This document shows, one piece after another, positions 1-64,000 of a stretch of 64,000 nt of DNA. Position 1 is the first letter of the stretch, and each line of letters begins with the position of its first letter. This stretch comes from Escherichia coli (GTDB taxonomy: Bacteria; Pseudomonadota; Gammaproteobacteria; Enterobacterales; Enterobacteriaceae), in the NCBI RefSeq assembly GCF_044647545.1, contig NZ_CP172818.1. One strand, given 5' to 3'. The notes under the pieces were generated by a model. The model saw nothing but the letters and a program-made list of their open reading frames with translations. It searched no databases and was not told where the DNA came from. A program made the translations under genes and the position numbers.

Positions 1-83
1 GTAAACGATAAAGTCTCGGTAGAAGCAAAAGAGCTGATCGCAATAGGGGTTGTCAGGACTATTCCCAGAAGTTTCGCCCGCAT
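1..83 (-). CDS. ompT: Outer membrane protease OmpT, 5' fragment (start codon and signal peptide only; gene continues beyond window start)
   Basis: Reverse-complement of bases 1-83 translates MRAKLLGIVLTTPIAISSFASTETLSFT, which I recognise as the OmpT signal peptide and mature N-terminus; AT-rich upstream region follows. Confidence 0.7.
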   Translation of the reverse strand, partial: MRAKLLGIVLTTPIAISSFASTETLSF

Positions 84-507
84 AAAAGTTCTCCATTCAA
101 TCGTTTTAATGATTGAATATGTATTTTTTATATCTAACTTAATGAGTCAATTACATATTGCTCCACTGTTTATATTTTGTTTAGTATTGAATGATTATCA
201 CAATGCGCTATCTGTTTTTGGTTTAATTATCTGTTATTGTTTCATATTGCGGTTTTACTGTGTGGTTTTTTTATGCTTTTGTGGTGCTTTTATCTATTTA
301 AGTGCCATGCCTTTAGAGGCATATAAGCGAAAATAGCATGAGGTTTATCCTCAATTACTATGTTTTTTAGTACAAAAAAGAGGGACAAAACTGAGACACA
401 TAAGGCCTCACAATGGCTTGCAAGGCTTTACATGTTTTGAGGTAGTGGGACGTGTGAGCGCAGAGATGGCGCGGTAAGTTGTTGACTTAAAATGTCGTTC
501 TAGGAAC

Positions 508-30100: not shown

Positions 30101-30998
30101 CGATGCTGATTTCTTTGCGCTTGGCGGTCATTCGCTACTGGCAATGAAACTGGCAGCGCAGTTAAGTCGGCAGTTTGCCCGTCAGGTGACGCCGGGTCAG
30201 GTGATGGTCGCGTCAACCGTCGCCAAACTGGCAACGATTATTGATGGTGAAGAAGACAGCACCCAGCGCATGGGATTCGAAACCATTCTGCCGTTGCGTG
30301 AAGGTAATGGTCCGACGCTGTTTTGTTTCCATCCGGCATCCGGTTTTGCCTGGCAGTTTAGCGTGCTCTCGCGTTATCTCGATCCACAATGGTCGATTAT
30401 TGGCATCCAGTCGCCACGCCCTCATGGCCCCATGCAGACGGCGGCAAACCTGGATGAAGTCTGCGAAGCGCATCTGGCAACGTTACTTGAGCATCAACCG
30501 CACGGCCCTTATTACCTGCTGGGTTATTCGCTGGGCGGTACGCTGGCGCAGGGTATTGCGGCGCGGCTGCGTGCCCGTGGCGAACAGGTGGCATTTCTTG
30601 GCTTGCTGGATACCTGGCCGCCAGAAACGCAAAACTGGCAGGAAAAAGAGGCTAATGGCCTGGACCCGGAAGTGCTGGCGGAGATTAACCGCGAGCGCGA
30701 GGCCTTCCTGGCGGCACAGCAGGGAAGTACTTCAACGGAGTTGTTTACCACCATTGAAGGCAACTACGCTGATGCTGTGCGCCTGCTGACGACTGCTCAT
30801 AGCGTACCGTTTGAAGGTAAAGCGACGCTGTTTGTTGCTGAACGCACGCTTCAGGAAGGTATGAATCCCGAACGCGCCTGGTCGCCGTGGATTACGGAGC
30901 TGGATATCTATCGTCAGGATTGTGCGCATGTGGATATTATCTCGCCGATGGCGTTTGAAAAAATAGGGCCGATTATTCGTGCGACGCTAAATAAGTAA
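27117..30998 (+). CDS. entF: Enterobactin non-ribosomal peptide synthetase (C-A-PCP-TE, serine-activating)
   Basis: 1293-aa product from MSQHLPLVAAQPGIWMAEKL; adenylation core FTSGSTGRPKG, carrier-domain GGHSL motif, thioesterase GYSLGG motif all visible. Confidence 0.95.
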   Translation: MSQHLPLVAAQPGIWMAEKLSDLPSAWSVAHYVELTGEVDAPLLARAVVAGLAQADTLRMRFTEDNGEVWQWVDDALTFELPEIIDLRTNIDPHGTAQALMQADLQQDLRVDSGKPLVFHQLIQVADNRWYWYQRYHHLLVDGFSFPAITRQIANIYCAWLRGEPTPASPFTPFADVVEEYQQYRESEAWQRDAAFWAEQRRQLPPPASLSPAPLPGRSASADILRLKLEFTDGEFRQLATQLSGVQRTDLALALAALWLGRLCNRMDYAAGFIFMRRLGSAALTATGPVLNVLPLGIHIAAQETLPELATRLAAQLKKMRRHQRYDAEQIVRDSGRAAGDEPLFGPVLNIKVFDYQLDIPDVQAQTHTLATGPVNDLELALFPDEHGDLSIEILANKQRYDEPTLIQHAERLKMLIAQFAADPALLCGDVDIMLPGEYAQLAQINATQVEIPETTLSALVAEQAAKTPDAPALVDARYQFSYREMREQVVALANLLRERGVKPGDSVAVALPRSVFLTLALHAIVEAGAAWLPLDTGYPDDRLKMMLEDARPSLLITTDDQLPRFADVPDLTRLCYNAPLIPQGSAPLQLSQPHHTAYIIFTSGSTGRPKGVMVGQTAIVNRLLWMQNHYPLTGEDVVAQKTPCSFDVSVWEFFWPFIAGAKLVMAEPEAHRDPLAMQQFFAEYGVTTTHFVPSMLAAFVASMTPQTARQSCATLKQVFCSGEALPADLCREWQQLTGAPLHNLYGPTEAAVDVSWYPAFGEELAQVRGSSVPIGYPVWNTGLRILDAMMHPVPPGVAGDLYLTGIQLAQGYLGRPDLTASRFIADPFAPGERMYRTGDVARWLDNGAVEYLGRSDDQLKIRGQRIELGEIDRVMQALPDVEQAVTHACVINQAAATGGDARQLVGYLVSQSGLPLDTSALQAQLRETLPPHMVPVVLLQLPQLPLSANGKLDRKALPLPELKAQAPGRAPKAGSETIIAAAFSSLLGCDVQDADADFFALGGHSLLAMKLAAQLSRQFARQVTPGQVMVASTVAKLATIIDGEEDSTQRMGFETILPLREGNGPTLFCFHPASGFAWQFSVLSRYLDPQWSIIGIQSPRPHGPMQTAANLDEVCEAHLATLLEHQPHGPYYLLGYSLGGTLAQGIAARLRARGEQVAFLGLLDTWPPETQNWQEKEANGLDPEVLAEINREREAFLAAQQGSTSTELFTTIEGNYADAVRLLTTAHSVPFEGKATLFVAERTLQEGMNPERAWSPWITELDIYRQDCAHVDIISPMAFEKIGPIIRATLNK

Positions 30999-31011
30999 AT
31001 TTATATTATCT

Positions 31012-31060
31012 ATAAACCCATAATTACAATAAATGATTATGGGTTTATTATTTATTTAAT
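31012..31060 (+). terminator. AT-rich 13-bp perfect inverted repeat followed by T-rich tract downstream of entF
   Basis: ATAAACCCATAAT … ATTATGGGTTTAT with about an 11-nt loop, then TTATTTATTTAATTTAT; about 14 bp after the entF stop. Confidence 0.5.
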
Positions 31061-31212
31061 TTATCAATTTAACGGATATTTCTCTGAAATAGAGTGAATG
31101 TTGCATTCAGTGGGAGGAATTTACAAACTTCAGCTTCGGATAAATCTCACCAACTGGTAAAGTGGGGGCCGTGGAGATTTACTCTTATTGGACCCATTTC
31201 AGGTTATACCGC

Positions 31213-32346
31213 ATGTCATCACTGAATATTAAACAGGGAAGTGACGCTCATTTTCCCGAGTATCCTCTGGCGTCGCCCAGTAATAATGAAATTGATTTAC
31301 TTAATCTAATCGACGTTTTATGGCGGGCAAAAAAAACGGTCATGGCGGTCGTTTTTGCGTTTGCCTGCACAGGATTGCTGATCTCTTTCATCCTGCCGCA
31401 AAAATGGACCAGCGCGGCGGTTGTCACGCCTCCAGAACCTGTTCAGTGGCAAGAACTGGAGAAAACATTCACTAAGCTTCGTGTGCTGGATCTGGATATC
31501 AAAATTGATCGTACAGAAGTATTTAACCTGTTTATCAAGAAGTTTCAGTCTGTTAGCTTACTAGAAGAGTACCTGCGCTCATCACCTTATGTGATGGACC
31601 AATTAAAAGAGGCGAAAATCGACGAACTGGATTTGCATCGAGCTATCGTCGCATTGAGCGAAAAAATGAAAGCGGTTGATGACAATGCCAGTAAGAAAAA
31701 AGATGAACCGTCACTGTATACCTCCTGGACGCTAAGTTTTACCGCGCCAACCAGTGAAGAGGCGCAGACCGTTTTGAGCGGGTATATCGATTATATCTCT
31801 GCGTTGGTGGTGAAAGAGTCGATAGAAAACGTCCGTAATAAACTGGAGATCAAAACCCAGTTTGAAAAAGAAAAACTGGCTCAGGATCGCATTAAAACGA
31901 AAAATCAACTTGATGCAAACATTCAGCGCCTCAATTATTCACTCGACATTGCCAACGCGGCAGGAATTAAAAAGCCCGTTTACAGTAATGGTCAGGCCGT
32001 TAAAGATGACCCCGATTTCTCTATTTCTCTCGGCGCAGACGGTATTGAACGCAAACTGGAAATTGAAAAAGCGGTTACTGACGTTGCGGAATTGAACGGT
32101 GAATTACGTAATCGTCAGTATCTTGTTGAGCAGCTAACAAAAGCAAATATCAACGATGTGAATTTTACGCCGTTTAAATATCAGTTAAGCCCGTCATTGC
32201 CAGTGAAAAAAGACGGTCCGGGTAAGGCGATTATTGTGATCCTTTCTGCGATGATCGGCGGGATGGTGGCTTGTGGTGGCGTGCTGTTGCGCCATGCGAT
32301 GGCATCCAGAAAACAGGATGCCGTGATGGAAGAGCACTTAGTTTAA
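31213..32346 (+). CDS. fepE: Wzz-type polysaccharide co-polymerase (chain-length regulator) encoded inside the enterobactin cluster
   Basis: Start at MSSLNIKQGSDAHFPEY… (377 aa); two TM helices at the N- and C-terminal ends flanking a coiled-coil-rich periplasmic domain; visibly lower GC than neighbours. Confidence 0.85.
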   Translation: MSSLNIKQGSDAHFPEYPLASPSNNEIDLLNLIDVLWRAKKTVMAVVFAFACTGLLISFILPQKWTSAAVVTPPEPVQWQELEKTFTKLRVLDLDIKIDRTEVFNLFIKKFQSVSLLEEYLRSSPYVMDQLKEAKIDELDLHRAIVALSEKMKAVDDNASKKKDEPSLYTSWTLSFTAPTSEEAQTVLSGYIDYISALVVKESIENVRNKLEIKTQFEKEKLAQDRIKTKNQLDANIQRLNYSLDIANAAGIKKPVYSNGQAVKDDPDFSISLGADGIERKLEIEKAVTDVAELNGELRNRQYLVEQLTKANINDVNFTPFKYQLSPSLPVKKDGPGKAIIVILSAMIGGMVACGGVLLRHAMASRKQDAVMEEHLV

Positions 32347-47480: not shown

Positions 47481-48110
47481 TTATTTAACCGTCCAGGCGC
47501 GGGAAAATTGACGGTCGGCAAACAACTCTTGCAGGCCGTTAATTTGCTTCAGGCGCAACACTTCGTCGCTGTCCATTCCCAGCTCTTTGCCAATTTTATT
47601 ATCGTCCCATCCCAACTGGCTGAGTTCTCGGACGATTTCTGACATGGCAGTGATTTGGTGACGTCCACGAGCGCGATTATGACGAATAGTTGCGGCGATG
47701 CGTTGATTACGCGTACCTTCCAGACAGGTCACCGGCAAATAACCTTTTAAGCGTAATTTTAACGATGATGAGCCTTTACCAATTTCATGGCGGTGAAAAC
47801 CATCCACGATTTCCAGGGCATTTTTATCCGTATGCGTGACCACAATGGGTTGGGTAAAACCATCTATTTCAATGGATTTTTTCAGCAGTTTTTTTTCGGG
47901 TGGTGCCACGTTGTTTGGGTTGTAATCATTAGGCATAAGTTGGCTGTTTTTAACCCACAGAACGCAATCCACTGGCTCTTCACGAAAGGGGCTAACCTGA
48001 TGGATCGCCATGCGGATTTCATTAATCGCTTTGATGCGATCATCTTCCGGCAAGCTGGCGAGAAATTGGGTTAAATCCTGCGTTAATCGTTGTTGCATAG
48101 TATCCCCCAT
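47481..48110 (-). CDS. ybdM: ParB/sulfiredoxin-like domain protein (IbrB-like)
   Basis: 209-aa ORF containing EIVDGFHRHEIG (DGxHR ParB/Srx-type motif); start overlaps the ybdN stop by 28 bp; its stop abuts the convergent ybdL stop. Confidence 0.8.
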   Translation of the reverse strand: MGDTMQQRLTQDLTQFLASLPEDDRIKAINEIRMAIHQVSPFREEPVDCVLWVKNSQLMPNDYNPNNVAPPEKKLLKKSIEIDGFTQPIVVTHTDKNALEIVDGFHRHEIGKGSSSLKLRLKGYLPVTCLEGTRNQRIAATIRHNRARGRHQITAMSEIVRELSQLGWDDNKIGKELGMDSDEVLRLKQINGLQELFADRQFSRAWTVK

Positions 48111-49303
48111 TCCTGACGTTTTCCTTTTATCCGTTCGTTATAACGCTGATAGTTCTTCGCTTTCGTAGGACTAAATGATAATGCCCGGCACCAGTAATCG
48201 TTATTGAGTAAAACTTTGCATATTCGCCGCCAGGAGGGGATATCTTTCGCGCCAATGTCCCCTTGCTGGGTTTGTGGAACTTCGATGCCTTTTTTCTGAT
48301 ACCAGTGCAAATAAATGGCGATTTTATTGCGGTAATGCTCAGCTGTTTTTTCCGGCATGCTATTGAGCAGCAATAATGCATATTCTTGCCAGTCTAAATG
48401 TTCTGGCTTGAGGATTTTCCGATGACCATAAAAATGATTATCATGTCCGGCGTAAATGCCGCCACTTTTTACCCCGCTGACTCGTGCGCACATAGCAGCC
48501 CAGCGATCCGGTTCGATAACGTGATAGAGCCATAATCCTTGCCGTTGCTCCGGGCCAAAAGGTTCGCAAATTCGCATATGACGCAGAGGAACGCCTGCCT
48601 GATACATTATATTATACAGTGGGTTACAGAGCTGTTGATGGTTAGCATACCAGGTCCAGATATCAGCCACTTTCCAGTCGTAGATGGGGTAAATGTACCA
48701 ACTATGACCGCCTGGTGCGGCGGTGGTCCAGGGCTTATCATCGGCAAAACGTTGTTTATTTAAACTGGCGATGGCGACAAAACGGTTGTAGGACTCATCT
48801 GCACGGATGCCGATCATCATCGCCGCCGGACGTTTTTGTGAAAACCATTCAGCAAACTCACGCACAAATTGTTCGAAGGTCATGCCAGGCTGGTAAAAGG
48901 AGAAAAAGTCAGGATCGGTTATCGCATCTTGCGGGGGCTGACGCACCCATTCGACATCAGGTTCCCAGCACTGCCATTCGGGTTGGTATTGAGAAAGGGA
49001 ATTTTGCGTCGTAAGCGGGAGCGCAACCCAGTAAAACTCTTCGATGACATCGGCGTAAAACTCACGTAATGACTGAACATAGTTAATAGTGCATGAGAAC
49101 TGCGCTTCCCAGTCGATAAACAAAACGCAGATTTTTTTGCCCATTTGTCGGGCAATTTCGGCGGTCAGATGCAGCATTAATCCGGAATCTTTACCACCCG
49201 AAAAAGAAACGCAGACACGGGGTAGGGTATTAAGTGTCCAGGTAATACGTTCTTTTGCAGCTTCCAGAATATTCAGTGGAAGCGGGATTTTATAAATAGA
49301 CAT
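48083..49303 (-). CDS. ybdN: PAPS-reductase-like PP-loop ATP pyrophosphatase family protein (IbrA-like)
   Basis: 406-aa ORF with N-terminal PP-loop VSFSGGKDS (SGGxDS) typical of the PAPS reductase / DndC superfamily. Confidence 0.85.
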   Translation of the reverse strand: MSIYKIPLPLNILEAAKERITWTLNTLPRVCVSFSGGKDSGLMLHLTAEIARQMGKKICVLFIDWEAQFSCTINYVQSLREFYADVIEEFYWVALPLTTQNSLSQYQPEWQCWEPDVEWVRQPPQDAITDPDFFSFYQPGMTFEQFVREFAEWFSQKRPAAMMIGIRADESYNRFVAIASLNKQRFADDKPWTTAAPGGHSWYIYPIYDWKVADIWTWYANHQQLCNPLYNIMYQAGVPLRHMRICEPFGPEQRQGLWLYHVIEPDRWAAMCARVSGVKSGGIYAGHDNHFYGHRKILKPEHLDWQEYALLLLNSMPEKTAEHYRNKIAIYLHWYQKKGIEVPQTQQGDIGAKDIPSWRRICKVLLNNDYWCRALSFSPTKAKNYQRYNERIKGKRQEWGILCNND

Positions 49304-49449
49304 CTAAAAACGCTCTCTGAACGTTACGGGGTGACTCGTGAGATGAATCCGCTAATTATAGGATAAACGAAGCAAGATAGAGCACATTATTTTATATTCA
49401 CATAATGAATTAATTGATGCGTAATATATTATTTGCCAGTGGTAATGAA

Positions 49450-50352
49450 TCAGAAGCTATCATTTAAACGATCTATGAATCGGGAGAAGACAAGGTTGTT
49501 CAACGAAGCCTTGTTATAGGAAATATAAAGTTTAACCGCAGGAAGAGGTTGTTCCAGTTTTATTTCTTTTAACTTCAAAAAGTCACGATGTAAATTGTAC
49601 AGTTCGGTGGGCACAATGCCTAATAAGTCAGTAACAGAAATACTATTAATTATAGTCATCAAAGAAGAACTGCGAAATGAAACTTTACGGTTCATAAAAC
49701 GTTCATCTATGTCCATTTGAATTTCGTCAATCCCTGCTGATTTAGATATCAACAGGGTGAATTCTTCGGCGATAATTTGTTCATAGTTACTGGTATCGGT
49801 AATACGAGGATGTTTGTTGCTACATATAAGAGAATTGCGAATAGTATGTAACGGCATGCAGATGACAGAGCGGCTAATTACTGGTTGTAGTGTAATTGCC
49901 AGGTCAGTTTTGCGTTGAACCAACAGTTCTTCGGCATTTTCAGCTGAAAGCAGTATGTCATGGCATTCTATATCGATTGAAGTATCTTGTCTAAGACAGC
50001 GGATTAGCATGTTGTTATTAGTACAAGAAATAAGCTGAGGACCGTAGATAATAAAATTTTTCTTTAGCTCAGACTTATTAACAATATTGATCGTTTGTTC
50101 AATGCCTCTGAGATTTTTCTCAAGATGATGATGCAGATTTAACCCTGTCGTAGTCGGCGCGATACCTTTCCCTGAACGAATGAATAACGGGTCATTAAAT
50201 TGCGCACGTAAACGTTGTAACGACTGACTAACAGCAGAGGGCGTTATATATAATGATTCTGCCGCTTTACTAATGCTGAGATGTTGATAAATACATTCAA
50301 ATATGACCAGTAAATTGAGGTCAAATTTTTTTAGATCATAAAGATTCGCCAT
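49450..50352 (-). CDS. ybdO: LysR-family transcriptional regulator
   Basis: Start at MANLYDLKKFDLNLLVIFECIYQHLSISKAAESLYITPSAVSQ (LysR HTH); about 300 aa; markedly AT-rich coding sequence. Confidence 0.8.
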   Translation of the reverse strand: MANLYDLKKFDLNLLVIFECIYQHLSISKAAESLYITPSAVSQSLQRLRAQFNDPLFIRSGKGIAPTTTGLNLHHHLEKNLRGIEQTINIVNKSELKKNFIIYGPQLISCTNNNMLIRCLRQDTSIDIECHDILLSAENAEELLVQRKTDLAITLQPVISRSVICMPLHTIRNSLICSNKHPRITDTSNYEQIIAEEFTLLISKSAGIDEIQMDIDERFMNRKVSFRSSSLMTIINSISVTDLLGIVPTELYNLHRDFLKLKEIKLEQPLPAVKLYISYNKASLNNLVFSRFIDRLNDSF

Positions 50353-50556
50353 AACATACTCCGTTGTATTGTCTCTTCCATAAATCATTCACTTGATCAA
50401 TATTGTTGTTGTATTTATATGTGTTATGTTTTTCTGCTTAACTTTGGATTAAGATTTTCTAAAATAGCATAGCTGTCAGGTGGGTTACGAGCAATTCATG
50501 CTTTTTTAGGATGGTTGAAAAGCAGGAATATATTTCAACCATCCATAAATTATCTT

Positions 50557-54478: not shown

Positions 54479-54756
54479 AAGCATTCTCTCCTTGTTTTTG
54501 CATGTTATAAAGAACTAAAGCGTTGTTCAAGGTATAGCACTGCAGCACACAATAATTGCTGCTATGAATATATAAATATGCAGTGATATCGAGAGCTTCG
54601 CTCATATGAGGTTATTCCGCAGATGAATAACCAGTTCAGATTAGAATGCTGCAGCATAAGAGAAAAATGATAAATCTGGATAAATTGATATTTGAGCGGA
54701 AAGAGGATGCGAGTGCATCCTCTGGGCAAAGCGAGTTGTCGCTTGTGCAGATGGGA

Positions 54757-61996: not shown

Positions 61997-63055
61997 TCAT
62001 GCGGGGGTCTTTTGACGAGCTGCCGCGTCCTGGCGGGAGTGCTCAAGCAGGTTCTGCAAATAATGCAGCGTGACTGCAGGGACCAGCGGCGCGATAGCCG
62101 TGAGATCGTTTTTCGCCAGCAGTTGACGTACCCGGGAAGCGGATATCGGCATCTCCTGGTAACGCAGCCGCTCAATTTCAACCAGTTCGATGGGCGGTGC
62201 GGAGATAGTCGGCGTTTCCAGCCAGTAGCGCATATCCTGGTTGTACTGGGCGGTAACGCGACAAAAGGGTTCAGTACCGACAAAGCGGTGAGTTACACCC
62301 AGCGCGGGAGCGAGGTACTGACGGAAAATCTTCAGATCAATTTCGGTGTAACAATGGTTAATGACGCTCTGTTCTTTAATGAAGTAGCAAGGGAACGTAG
62401 CGCGGGAGATGATGTATTCGGAGCCGCGATGCACAGTCAGGCGTGGAATATCGGCGGTGCCTTTTAACACCAGATCCAGCCGGTCTTCATAGGGGAAGCG
62501 TGAAGAATCTTCTTTGACTAAAAACAGATGCAACCAGTCGCACTGTGCCGCAGCCTGTTGAATCAGATAACGGTGACCATTCGTAAAGGGATTGGCGTTC
62601 ATCACAATGCAGCCAATCTTGTTCCCTGGATGACGAAATTTTTTCAGCGATTCGGCATAGCGTTTCAGTCGCGTGGCGCTGTTTTCCATCAGCACCATCA
62701 CGCCGGGTACGCTGGTCAGCGTGGAAAAACCGCACTGGCGGAACAGCGCCTCGTATTCGGTTTTGGTATAAATAAACAGATGCGTGCTGTGCCGCTCATA
62801 GGCGAGGTTTATCAATTCAGTGGCTAATGTCAGCGCCAGTCCTTCACCGCGAACGGATTCACTGATAGCAACGCATTTAATAATATTTCCGGCAATTCCA
62901 CCGCACGCGATAAGCTTTTCATCGCGGGTTACGGTAATAAATACTTCGACTGTGGTGTCAACGCTCAAATCATTTTCATGCAGGAATTGGGCGATTTCCG
63001 CCATTTTTTTATTTTCTGAACGTTTTACACGGGTGAAAATATCATTGCCGAACAT
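61997..63055 (-). CDS. citC: [Citrate (pro-3S)-lyase] ligase
   Basis: Start at MFGNDIFTRVKRSENKKMAEIAQ (352 aa); the longer 381-aa track ORF start is rejected. Confidence 0.88.
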   Translation of the reverse strand: MFGNDIFTRVKRSENKKMAEIAQFLHENDLSVDTTVEVFITVTRDEKLIACGGIAGNIIKCVAISESVRGEGLALTLATELINLAYERHSTHLFIYTKTEYEALFRQCGFSTLTSVPGVMVLMENSATRLKRYAESLKKFRHPGNKIGCIVMNANPFTNGHRYLIQQAAAQCDWLHLFLVKEDSSRFPYEDRLDLVLKGTADIPRLTVHRGSEYIISRATFPCYFIKEQSVINHCYTEIDLKIFRQYLAPALGVTHRFVGTEPFCRVTAQYNQDMRYWLETPTISAPPIELVEIERLRYQEMPISASRVRQLLAKNDLTAIAPLVPAVTLHYLQNLLEHSRQDAAARQKTPA

Positions 63056-63213
63056 AATAAATAGTATCCTGAAGGTGCATGTTGTTATCGATTTGCAACG
63101 AATGTTGTTCGATGTTGCAAACTGATAACCTTTTATTTTCACTTGGGAGAAAGGGGGGCGATCGAGGTATATCTTTTTCTCCTTTCGCTATACATCCTAA
63201 GGAGTATTGCTGC

Positions 63214-63236
63214 GTGAAATTTTGATTTATTTCACA
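63214..63236. promoter_or_regulatory. Palindrome GTGAAAT-N8-ATTTCAC in the AT-rich citC/citA divergent control region (candidate regulator-binding site)
   Basis: Perfect 7-bp arms read directly; the right arm contains the TCACA half-site of a CRP-like motif; the region also carries repeated TTTAA/TTAAT motifs. Confidence 0.3.
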
Positions 63237-63434
63237 TAGAGTTAGTGGTTTTTTATTTATTTAATGGTTTTAAGTTTTTTAATTAATGTAATTACGAAAT
63301 GACCCGCAGGTTTAAGTGATTTAATTGATTTAATGAATAAAATTTGCCACGATTATATTTAATATCTATGTATTTTGATTCAACATTTTAATTACATCTG
63401 TCAAAGAGGCTCGGGACAACCCGCAAGGAAAACA

Positions 63435-64000
63435 ATGTTGCAGCTTAACGAGAATAAACAGTTTGCATTTTTCCAAAGACTGGCATTTCCGCTGCGTATC
63501 TTTTTGCTGATTCTGGTGTTCTCAATATTTGTCATTGCAGCCCTGGCGCAATATTTTACGGCCAGTTTTGAGGACTATTTAACGCTTCATGTGCGCGACA
63601 TGGCAATGAATCAGGCAAAAATTATTGCTTCTAATGACAGTATCATCAGCGCAGTGAAAACGCGTGACTACAAGAGGCTGGCGACCATCGCTGACAAATT
63701 ACAAAGAGATACTGATTTCGATTATGTGGTGATTGGCGATCGGCACTCGATTCGTCTTTACCATCCTAATCCGGAGAAAATTGGTTATCCTATGCAGTTC
63801 ACCAAACCGGGCGCGCTGGAGAAAGGGGAGAGCTACTTCATCACCGGGAAAGGGTCAATTGGCATGGCGATGCGTGCCAAAACGCCAATCTTTGATGACG
63901 ATGGAAAAGTCATCGGCGTGGTGTCGATTGGCTACCTGGTGAGTAAAATCGATAGCTGGCGGGCTGAGTTTTTATTACCGATGGCTGGCGTGTTTGTCGT
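63435..64000 (+). CDS. citA: Citrate-sensing histidine kinase, N-terminal part (continues beyond window end)
   Basis: ATG-initiated MLQLNENKQFAFFQRLAFPLRIFLLILVFSIFVIAALAQ… (TM1 then periplasmic PAS-like citrate-binding domain); open to the end of the window. Confidence 0.85.
   Translation, partial: MLQLNENKQFAFFQRLAFPLRIFLLILVFSIFVIAALAQYFTASFEDYLTLHVRDMAMNQAKIIASNDSIISAVKTRDYKRLATIADKLQRDTDFDYVVIGDRHSIRLYHPNPEKIGYPMQFTKPGALEKGESYFITGKGSIGMAMRAKTPIFDDDGKVIGVVSIGYLVSKIDSWRAEFLLPMAGVFV

Follow-up and report, generated by a model that had tools for sequence, protein, structure and literature searches.

The genes ybdN and ybdM of Escherichia coli encode a pair of proteins of the IbrA and IbrB families, and lie directly downstream of citR (also named ybdO), which encodes a LysR-type repressor. 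Here we describe this locus in a stretch of 64,000 nucleotides (the window; NCBI RefSeq assembly GCF_044647545.1, contig NZ_CP172818.1), where the immediate neighbours of ybdNM are ybdL, citR and dsbG. The coordinates of its features are collected in Table 1. The locus is 100% identical to that of E. coli strain EC11, in which the annotation reads citR–ybdN–ybdM, and the RefSeq product names are 'IbrB-like domain-containing protein' for YbdM and 'phosphoadenosine phosphosulfate reductase' for YbdN. The locus, the domains of its products, its regulator, its silencing by H-NS and its kinship with IbrAB had all been annotated or published before. The new evidence is comparative, and consists of the obligate pairing of the two genes, an invariant PP-loop core that lacks a universal cysteine, a partner protein that combines a ParB-like domain with a helix-turn-helix (HTH), the presence of helicase and 'domain X' partners in viruses, and the dispensability of CitR. 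This comparative picture sharpens the choice of experiments and leaves the function of the pair unproven.

Table 1. Features of the citR–ybdN–ybdM locus (positions in the window), domains of its products (residue numbers) and comparison loci (L numbers, with positions where given)
Feature	Location	Strand	Description
ybdM	47481-48110	minus	Open reading frame, 209 aa; IbrB-family protein
ybdN	48083-49303	minus	Open reading frame, 406 aa; IbrA-family protein
ybdN/ybdM overlap	48083-48110	minus	28 bp, counted from the annotated ybdM ATG (48110)
Shorter ybdN/ybdM overlap	48083-48098	minus	16 bp, counted from the conserved ybdM ATG at 48098
citR–ybdN intergenic region	49304-49449	minus	Candidate ybdN promoter
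-10 box of candidate ybdN promoter	49355-49360	minus	TATAAT
Dyad of the type bound by LysR-type transcriptional regulators	49396-49410	minus	ATTCA-N5-TGAAT (T-N11-A), 35 nt upstream of the -10 box
citR (ybdO)	49450-50352	minus	RefSeq start, 300 aa; LysR-type repressor
Longest ybdO open reading frame	49450-50388	minus	312 aa
dsbG–citR intergenic region	50353-50556	minus	citR promoter and published H-NS-dependent upstream element (PMC4720273)
Hyper-divergent block relative to K-12	~49150-50545		First ~50 ybdN codons, both intergenic regions and citR
YbdN PP-loop ATP-pyrophosphatase domain	residues 30-236		PAPS-reductase subfamily (predicted)
YbdN DUF3440 domain	residues 237-406		Helical, basic (isoelectric point 9.4)
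YbdM N-terminal helical hairpin	residues 1-45		
YbdM ParB/Srx-fold nucleotide-binding domain	residues ~46-150		Predicted; motifs YNPNxVAPPE, DGFHR, TIRHNRARGxH
YbdM C-terminal HTH	residues ~151-209		
Helicase genes beside the pair	L002:3833-5002; L003:2509-3744; L012:552-1781; L077:5763-7013; L059:8913-10676		
Domain X, examples	L040:3384-3809; L047:1758-2897		Separate gene (L040) and fusion (L047); IMG/VR loci L020-L093
Loci with ybdNM and no citR	L109, L110, L113-L116, L118, L121, L131, L141, L143, L145, L146, L151, L153, L157, L159		

YbdN is predicted, from its sequence and its modelled structure, to be a PP-loop ATP pyrophosphatase of the phosphoadenosine phosphosulfate (PAPS)-reductase subfamily with an intact catalytic core. 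A first-pass annotation of the window, made from the letters of the DNA, had placed ybdN in the PAPS reductase/DndC superfamily on the strength of the motif VSFSGGKDS, which occupies residues 32–40, and the profile searches that it suggested bear out the PAPS-reductase relationship. Pfam returned PF01507 (PAPS_reduct, residues 30–234, 6e-14), PF11922 (DUF3440, 5e-23) and a weak PP-loop match, and YbdN also matches phrog_2302 at 1.5e-76. The AlphaFold model is confident (predicted local distance difference test score, pLDDT, 92; predicted template modelling score, pTM, 0.90), and its fold neighbours are the reductases of adenosine phosphosulfate (APS) and PAPS, CysD, TilS, TtuA, NcsA and ThiI, the aligned part being the N-terminal ~170 residues only. 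The DUF3440 domain had no structural match among solved structures, and sequence searches of the PDB with YbdN and YbdM gave marginal matches only.

Conservation within the family bears on the chemistry of YbdN. Among ~200 homologues of chromosomal, plasmid, cultured-phage and metagenomic origin, residues S35, G37, K38, S40, D64, E66, S171 and D214 are invariant and R167 and E170 nearly so, and there is no universal cysteine. The invariant PP-loop core points to ATP-pyrophosphatase or adenylyl-transfer chemistry, and the lack of a universal cysteine argues against both a CysH-type thiosulfonate mechanism and an obligatory iron–sulfur (Fe–S) site of the DndC/TtuA type. Residue C246, which lies near the equivalent of the CysH catalytic cysteine, is a cysteine in just 51 of 77 viral homologues. 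The chromosomal and plasmid YbdN/IbrA proteins of enterobacteria combine A94 with C31, C112, C246, C362 and C372 (62 of 63 species), and about 80% of the phage homologues carry Cys94, with their other cysteines being variable. The enterobacterial pattern of A94 and five cysteines may represent a lineage-specific metal or redox site. A reading of the Cys94-to-Ala difference as a loss of function in the chromosomal lineage was rejected, since Ala94 is also found in plasmid and some viral copies and no cysteine is common to all.

The second protein, YbdM, carries the ParB/sulfiredoxin (Srx)-type DGxHR motif that had been noted on first inspection, in the form VDGFHRH at residues 102–108. Its only Pfam match is a weak one to ParB_N (2.8e-4), while phrog_2159 is matched at 1.1e-68. 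In the structural model (pLDDT 86.8) the N-domain matches PadC, KorB, sulfiredoxin, SbnI, SerK and Spo0J, and the C-terminal HTH matches the DNA-binding domain of KorB, sigma region 4 and the VirB core. An alignment of 65 YbdM sequences has 19 invariant residues, which fall within the three ParB-box-like motifs listed in Table 1 and resemble those of an NTP pocket, and the ParB_N domain is basic, with an isoelectric point of 9.8. On the evidence of the model, YbdM is a ParB/Srx fold joined to an HTH of the KorB/ParB type. It is not a canonical ParB, however. Unlike the cytidine triphosphate (CTP)-dependent clamps ParB, KorB, VirB and Noc, it has DGFHR in the place of the GERR box and lacks a C-terminal dimerisation domain, ending after the HTH, and it scores 15.8 bits against TIGR00180 (cut-off 58.45) and 20.4 against the Noc model (cut-off 315).

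The arrangement of the two genes is equally characteristic. The 28-bp overlap reported in the first-pass annotation is confirmed when counted from the annotated ybdM start, and shortens to 16 bp when counted from the ATG at 48098, which is in frame, corresponds to the start used by Citrobacter among other genera, and is preceded, 4 nt to its 5' side, by a GGGGGA Shine–Dalgarno sequence. The 16-bp overlap is also present in the island paralogue of strain EDL933, and overlap is the rule across the IbrA/IbrB family, with −1, −4 and −16/−17 prevailing among 72 viral pairs. It suggests that translation of the two genes is coupled. With PF01507 and PF11922 in one protein, a ParB_N domain and HTH encoded by an adjacent and co-oriented gene, and the YNPN, DGFHR and RHNRARG motifs in the second, ybdNM has the domain and motif features of the IbrA/IbrB family.

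The relationship with IbrA/IbrB had been noted in the first-pass annotation and is upheld by full-length identities to the EDL933 island pair of 58% for YbdN (IbrA-like) and 57% for YbdM (IbrB-like). The IbrAB proteins of an island in E. coli ECOR-9 share the two-gene family and architecture of YbdN/YbdM and are reported to activate Eib expression (Sandt, Hopper & Hill 2002, as cited by PMC7649339). The two kinds of locus differ in their setting: ybdNM belongs to the syntenic core and is locked by CitR and H-NS, whereas ibrAB-type copies are mobile, flanked by insertion sequences (IS), and adjoin PerC, autotransporter, fimbrial or siderophore genes. Among the 5,426 complete genomes of E. coli, 2,150 (~40%) have between one and four additional island-type copies, 57–58% identical to YbdNM in amino acids. 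In EDL933 (O157:H7; L165, 9001–11204) the pair sits directly upstream of a gene for a PerC-family regulator, in an IS-ridden island that also encodes the Cah autotransporter, and in ATCC 25922 (L166) the island pair adjoins a gene for a TonB-dependent receptor. The pair is also carried by 854 plasmids, at ~58% identity to YbdN, the tally being 323 for Klebsiella, 204 for Escherichia, 129 for Ralstonia and 123 for Shigella (fragments only in this last genus). Examples are an IncFIB hypervirulence-type plasmid of K. pneumoniae (L163, 11989–13850), where the pair lies beside iroBCDN and peg-344, and an IncF plasmid of E. coli (L162), where it follows an F4/K88-like fimbrial operon.

The family is widespread in viruses, where its two members are again found together. 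Among GenBank phages, YbdN-like genes occur in 224 records and YbdM-like genes in 226, with identical host distributions (Flavobacterium 90, Mycobacterium 60, Streptococcus 21, Arthrobacter 12, and others), and the carriers span phages of Bacteroidota, Actinobacteria, Firmicutes and Proteobacteria. The pair has also been reported among the viruses of Asgard archaea, in a Heimdallarchaeal virus. In a sample of 80 IMG/VR loci, 77 of which have an intact IbrA gene, 72 of these 77 genes are accompanied on the same strand by an IbrB gene no more than 730 bp away, which is upstream of IbrA in 36 and downstream in 36; most of the pairs overlap, by 1–17 bp. The pair was present in each metagenomic context inspected, and the pairing of IbrA with IbrB is near-obligate. 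Two long homologues (P0243 and P0293) were considered as possible IbrA–ParB fusions, and in both of them the ParB gene proved to be separate and adjacent. Two short and unannotated records that gave the closest tblastn matches among 'phage' entries were not counted as prophage copies. OR845499 is a fragment carrying the chromosomal ybdL–ybdM–ybdN of another enterobacterium, and OR851112, which matches YbdN as closely as the chromosomal homologue from Salmonella does, is probably host DNA.

The neighbours of the viral pairs are drawn from DNA metabolism. Genes for SF2/SNF2-type helicases are adjacent in 26 of the 77 loci and belong to two families (phrog_62 and phrog_16 types), one found in 15 loci and the other in 11, and helicase genes are also translationally coupled or adjacent to the pair in several cultured phages of Gram-positive hosts. 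A second ParB-like paralogue is encoded in 26 viral loci, other recurring neighbours being RecE/ExoVIII, Sak4, a Cas4-type exonuclease and a primosomal protein, and in several cultured phages the module stands immediately ahead of the terminase genes. An unannotated domain of ~130–170 aa, which we refer to as domain X, was found in 47 of the 80 loci, as a C-terminal fusion to IbrB in 21 and as the product of its own neighbouring gene in 26. Its motifs are WE, W..S.E..L.N and NR.AW.G.A; it gave no match in Pfam, PHROG or the PDB, and is absent from E. coli ybdNM. In the Fusobacterium phage phiFN37 (L005, 9748–11033), a ParB-like gene is followed by one for a queuine tRNA-ribosyltransferase, in a DpdB/DpdA-like arrangement ~3 kb from an IbrA–IbrB–helicase module, so that two enzyme pairs with ParB-like partners occur together.

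The history of the chromosomal locus has to be told differently from the first-pass annotation, in which citR–ybdN–ybdM was taken for an AT-rich, horizontally acquired islet. The dip in guanine + cytosine (GC) content is genuine yet uneven, and marked AT-richness is confined to the citR slot (49304–50556), which has a GC content of 0.354 where the mean for the window is 0.530 (z = −4.8); no other kilobase of the 64 kb is as rich in AT. The value for the citR gene itself is 0.367, and those for ybdN (0.466; z = −1.6, 6th percentile) and ybdM (0.465; z = −1.2, 11th percentile) are only mildly low. The same dip is seen across 65 Enterobacteriaceae species, with ybdNM ~4–7 points under ahpF/ybdL and the regulator slot 10–18 points under, and since it is common to all of them it is a stable property of the locus and no scar of a fresh acquisition. 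Elsewhere in the window, further low-GC stretches (0.39–0.41) lie at 1–900, ~30900–31800 and 62700–63900, the last of which comprises the dpiB–citC intergenic region and the start of citC.

The distribution of the locus is that of a core locus. It is present in 5,420 of the 5,426 E. coli genomes, and the gene order ahpF–ahpC–(dsbG)–(citR)–ybdN–ybdM–ybdL–(hcxA) is kept across the 65 species, which include members of Escherichia, Citrobacter, Enterobacter, Lelliottia, Pseudocitrobacter, Phytobacter, Kosakonia and Superficieibacter, together with Salmonella arizonae and diarizonae. Outside Escherichia the amino acid identity is 70–86% for YbdN and 62–81% for YbdM, and the ratios of non-synonymous to synonymous substitution (dN/dS) against K-12 are 0.04 and 0.07, respectively. 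No mobility genes flank the chromosomal ybdNM locus. A recent genomic islet was rejected on these grounds and on that of the stable low GC, and the comparisons indicate that ybdNM is ancestral at its position and under purifying selection. The source of the chromosomal pair was probably an ancient module carried by a phage or plasmid.

Regulation of the pair in E. coli has been described in published work. The product of ybdO is a full-length match to NCBIfam NF047710 (454.3 bits, cut-off 400), which identifies it as CitR, and the suggestion that this adjacent LysR gene is a dedicated regulator agrees with a peak upstream of citR–ybdNM found when immunoprecipitated chromatin was digested with exonuclease (ChIP-exo) and with RNA sequencing (RNA-seq) of a ybdO mutant, in which ybdN was raised by log2 5.5 and ybdM by log2 2.5 (Rodionova et al. 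2022, PMC9068703). In the same ΔcitR data cysDNC, cysJI and cysAWU were raised by log2 2–2.8 and flagellar genes strongly (PMC9068703, Table 1). Silencing by H-NS, which had likewise been anticipated, is an experimental finding for ybdO, as H-NS binds and represses the gene in K-12, SE11 and SE15, and ybdO ranked within the 50 genes and upstream regions of E. coli that carry the most substitutions (Higashi et al. 2016, PMC4720273), so that neither the silencing by H-NS nor the divergence of citR is a new finding. In E. coli, then, the ybdNM operon is repressed by CitR and citR is itself silenced by H-NS.

The citR gene is the variable part of the locus. Its identity to the K-12 allele is 79.8% in nucleotides and 88.7% in amino acids, with a synonymous divergence (dS) of ~2.1 against 0.01–0.27 for its neighbours, and sliding identity to K-12 is 61–90% within the hyper-divergent block and 95–100% in the flanks. 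Across the 5,426 genomes citR is dimorphic, with alleles that are ~80% identical in nucleotides. An allele at least 95% identical to that of the window was found in 1,771 genomes, one that is 60–80% identical (mostly ~79–80%; the K-12 type) in 3,477, and an intermediate of 80–95% in 97. A third class is found in E. whittamii and Escherichia sp. E1V33, at 74–77% amino acid identity. Import from another genus was rejected as the source of the dimorphism, because the Escherichia alleles are 74–89% identical to each other in amino acids and 52–62% to those of Citrobacter and Salmonella. Outside Escherichia, CitR is only 48–62% identical while YbdN there is 72–86% identical, and in 17 Enterobacteriaceae species that retain ybdNM citR is missing, leaving an AT-rich dsbG–ybdN gap of 215–415 bp or a decayed remnant. 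These species belong to the Citrobacter amalonaticus group, Phytobacter, Kosakonia, Pluralibacter and, in part, Lelliottia. CitR is therefore not an obligate partner of ybdNM. In a few E. coli genomes (H11, H91, H98 and H108), IS1 is inserted in citR or ybdN.

The regulatory sequences around citR can be outlined only tentatively. A scan for promoters and terminators gave counts no greater than in shuffled sequence. In the candidate ybdN promoter, the TATAAT box and the half-sites of the upstream dyad are kept in four Escherichia allele classes, with the spacer varying, and the dyad is a reasonable though weakly supported candidate for a CitR box, as the region is AT-rich and like dyads occur in some species without citR. 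The dsbG–citR intergenic region is 69–84% identical to that of K-12, in which the citR transcription start site lies 107 bp upstream of the ATG (PMC4720273).

To account for these observations we favour, with a probability of roughly 45%, a reading in which ybdNM is a vertically inherited copy of IbrA/IbrB, a two-protein, nucleotide-dependent and DNA-directed module that activates silenced genes. In such a module, YbdM would bind DNA and use a nucleoside triphosphate to load on or remodel it, in the manner of KorB, VirB or DpdB, and would recruit or activate YbdN, which would then act on DNA, or on a target bound to it, in an adenylyl-transfer step that depends on ATP. Otherwise silenced, horizontally acquired genes would be switched on as a result, by analogy with the action of IbrAB on eib, and the position of the island and plasmid paralogues beside adhesin, autotransporter, siderophore and PerC genes fits such a role. 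The ParB-like partner of a DNA-modifying enzyme would have its precedents in DpdB/DpdA, where DpdB, a ParB-like ATPase, is required for DNA modification by DpdA, and in DndB/DndC, with BrxP as a further parallel.

Several points weigh against this reading. The first-pass annotation had stated that no biochemical activity was established for the pair, and our literature search agrees, having found no biochemical or DNA-binding data for any member of the IbrA/IbrB family; YbdM was described as 'completely uncharacterized' in a study of 2022. The effect of IbrAB on eib is known at second hand, through the citing paper PMC7649339, and it is the linkage of the genes that suggests a physical interaction between YbdN and YbdM. 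The ybdO mutants used for RNA-seq were BW25113 derivatives of unstated construction (PMC9068703), so that read-through from a resistance cassette into ybdN may inflate the apparent repression by CitR. Deletion or overexpression of ybdM in K-12 had fitness effects of only 1–2% and 10%. Finally, many of the viral carriers are strictly lytic, including Flavobacterium phage FCL-2, the mycobacteriophages of cluster B and the S. thermophilus cos phages, and in these a role as 'prophage gene co-activator' makes little sense.

Carriage by lytic phages is better explained by the main rival, a true DNA-modification system resembling Dnd or Dpd, which we nevertheless regard as unlikely. Here YbdN/IbrA would modify DNA covalently, at the backbone or at a base, through an adenylation-initiated reaction and YbdM/IbrB would target it, for evasion of restriction or the marking of self, with the SNF2 helicase and domain X helping to target the reaction in phages and any effects on transcription being secondary. 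The presence of the pair in phages, both lytic and temperate, whose hosts span at least four phyla of bacteria, within replication and recombination modules or just before the terminase genes, is in keeping with this, as are the translationally coupled helicases, the ParB_N–methyltransferase fusions among the PHROG and PADLOC matches of YbdM, and carriage on the 854 plasmids, which are large. There is also the analogy with three known systems. DndB/DndC likewise unites a PP-loop ATPase of the PAPS-reductase family with a DNA- and nucleotide-binding DGxHR protein of the ParB superfamily; in DpdB/DpdA a ParB-like NTPase is needed for the action of its partner enzyme on DNA; and BrxP, of type-4 BREX, belongs to the PAPS-reductase family and is part of a DNA-directed system with a helicase among its components.

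Each analogy has its limits, however. The DndC model covers only residues 145–254 of YbdN, which has DUF3440 in place of the DndC C-terminal region, and the scores are far under the cut-off (TIGR03183, 21.9 bits against 290.4), with a partial match to the PADLOC DndC model at 1.9e-5. With no universal cysteine, YbdN has neither a DndC-type cysteine dyad nor an Fe–S signature, and dndA, dndD and dndE are not linked to ybdNM. The catalytic partner in DpdB/DpdA is a transglycosylase of the TGT family and not a PP-loop enzyme. The BrxP model, also partial and far under its cut-off, is matched only by YbdN residues 29–102 (E 1e-4), BrxP itself carries DUF4007 and other domains, and the locus has none of the BREX core genes. 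Nor is ybdNM linked to a cognate restriction component, and as the E. coli copy is silenced it would not mark the chromosome constitutively. The DNA of E. coli K-12 is not known to contain any unexplained modification.

A broader form of this idea, bolder and to our minds improbable, would make IbrA/IbrB a widespread class of ATP-dependent DNA-marking systems. A ParB-like, NTP-driven loader would deliver a PP-loop adenylyltransferase that makes a novel covalent DNA modification, and in phages the SNF2 helicase and domain X would lend their help. To phages and plasmids it would offer a way round restriction or silencing, and enterobacteria would have domesticated it as an epigenetic switch locked by H-NS and CitR.

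The first-pass annotation had also likened the pair to defence modules, and an uncatalogued system for defence against phages or plasmids, or for counter-defence, might be read from its domain types (ParB-like, PAPS-reductase-like and SNF2 helicase), which recur in Dnd, Ssp, BREX-4 and Dpd, from its carriage on phages, plasmids and IS-flanked islands, and from the reported 29-fold rise of YbdM protein in the presence of a resistance plasmid. The likeness is not borne out by PADLOC-DB 2.0, in which YbdN and YbdM gave partial-domain matches only (DndC 1.9e-5, BrxP 1.1e-4, MTase_II 6.5e-4; all within 1e-5 to 1e-3) and CitR gave none. The chromosomal copy belongs to the syntenic core, outside the variable defence islands, and is silenced under standard conditions, no nuclease or toxin effector is linked to it, and the pair is frequent in lytic phages, all of which makes a defence role very unlikely.

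A role in sulfur or thiol-redox metabolism has a slighter chance still. YbdN would act on APS, PAPS or another sulfonucleotide and YbdM would be a sulfiredoxin-like, ATP-dependent repair enzyme or a kinase, perhaps tied to ahpCF and dsbG. This would suit the RefSeq name of YbdN and the presence of APS/PAPS reductases and CysD among the closest folds, and loose hints in the same direction come from the conserved synteny with ahpCF and dsbG and from the rise of the cys genes alongside ybdNM in the ΔcitR data. YbdN is nevertheless far under the cut-offs of the CysH models (TIGR02057, 34.9 against 254.2; NF002537, 34 against 154), and differs from CysH, CysD and FAD synthase in having an intact, canonical ATP-type SGGKDS PP-loop and the additional DUF3440, with no C-terminal ECG(L/I)H cysteine motif and with C246 variable. 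The catalytic cysteine of sulfiredoxin lies within a GGCHR motif. YbdM has DGFHR, with Phe at the position of that cysteine, and an HTH as well. The phage neighbours are genes of DNA metabolism and not of sulfur metabolism, and E. coli already has cysH.

Modification of RNA or tRNA, with YbdN acting on an RNA base as a PP-loop enzyme like TilS, TtcA or ThiI and DUF3440 binding the RNA, is just as improbable, for although TilS, TtuA, NcsA and ThiI are among the fold neighbours, DUF3440 is basic, and one metagenomic pair lies beside a pseudouridine synthase gene and another beside a tRNA_bind gene, the obligate partner has the ParB and HTH architecture of a DNA-binding protein, the usual neighbours are helicase and recombination genes, and no universal cysteine or Fe–S site is available for thiolation. 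A toxin–antitoxin reading, which could be drawn from the listing of DUF3440 in TASmania, is made unlikely by the sizes of the proteins, the enzymatic core and the mild cost of overexpression.

Under the gene-activation reading or any of its rivals, ybdNM is among the better-conserved 'y-gene' puzzles, being core across the sampled genera of the Enterobacteriaceae. Solving its chemistry would give DUF3440 a function and explain how IbrAB activates silenced surface-protein genes, and might reveal a new mechanism of DNA-directed modification or of counter-silencing.

Outside the locus, the strain lacks ybdR (K-12 b0608), and has ~1.5 kb fewer than K-12 at ~54500–54650, between uspG and yldA.

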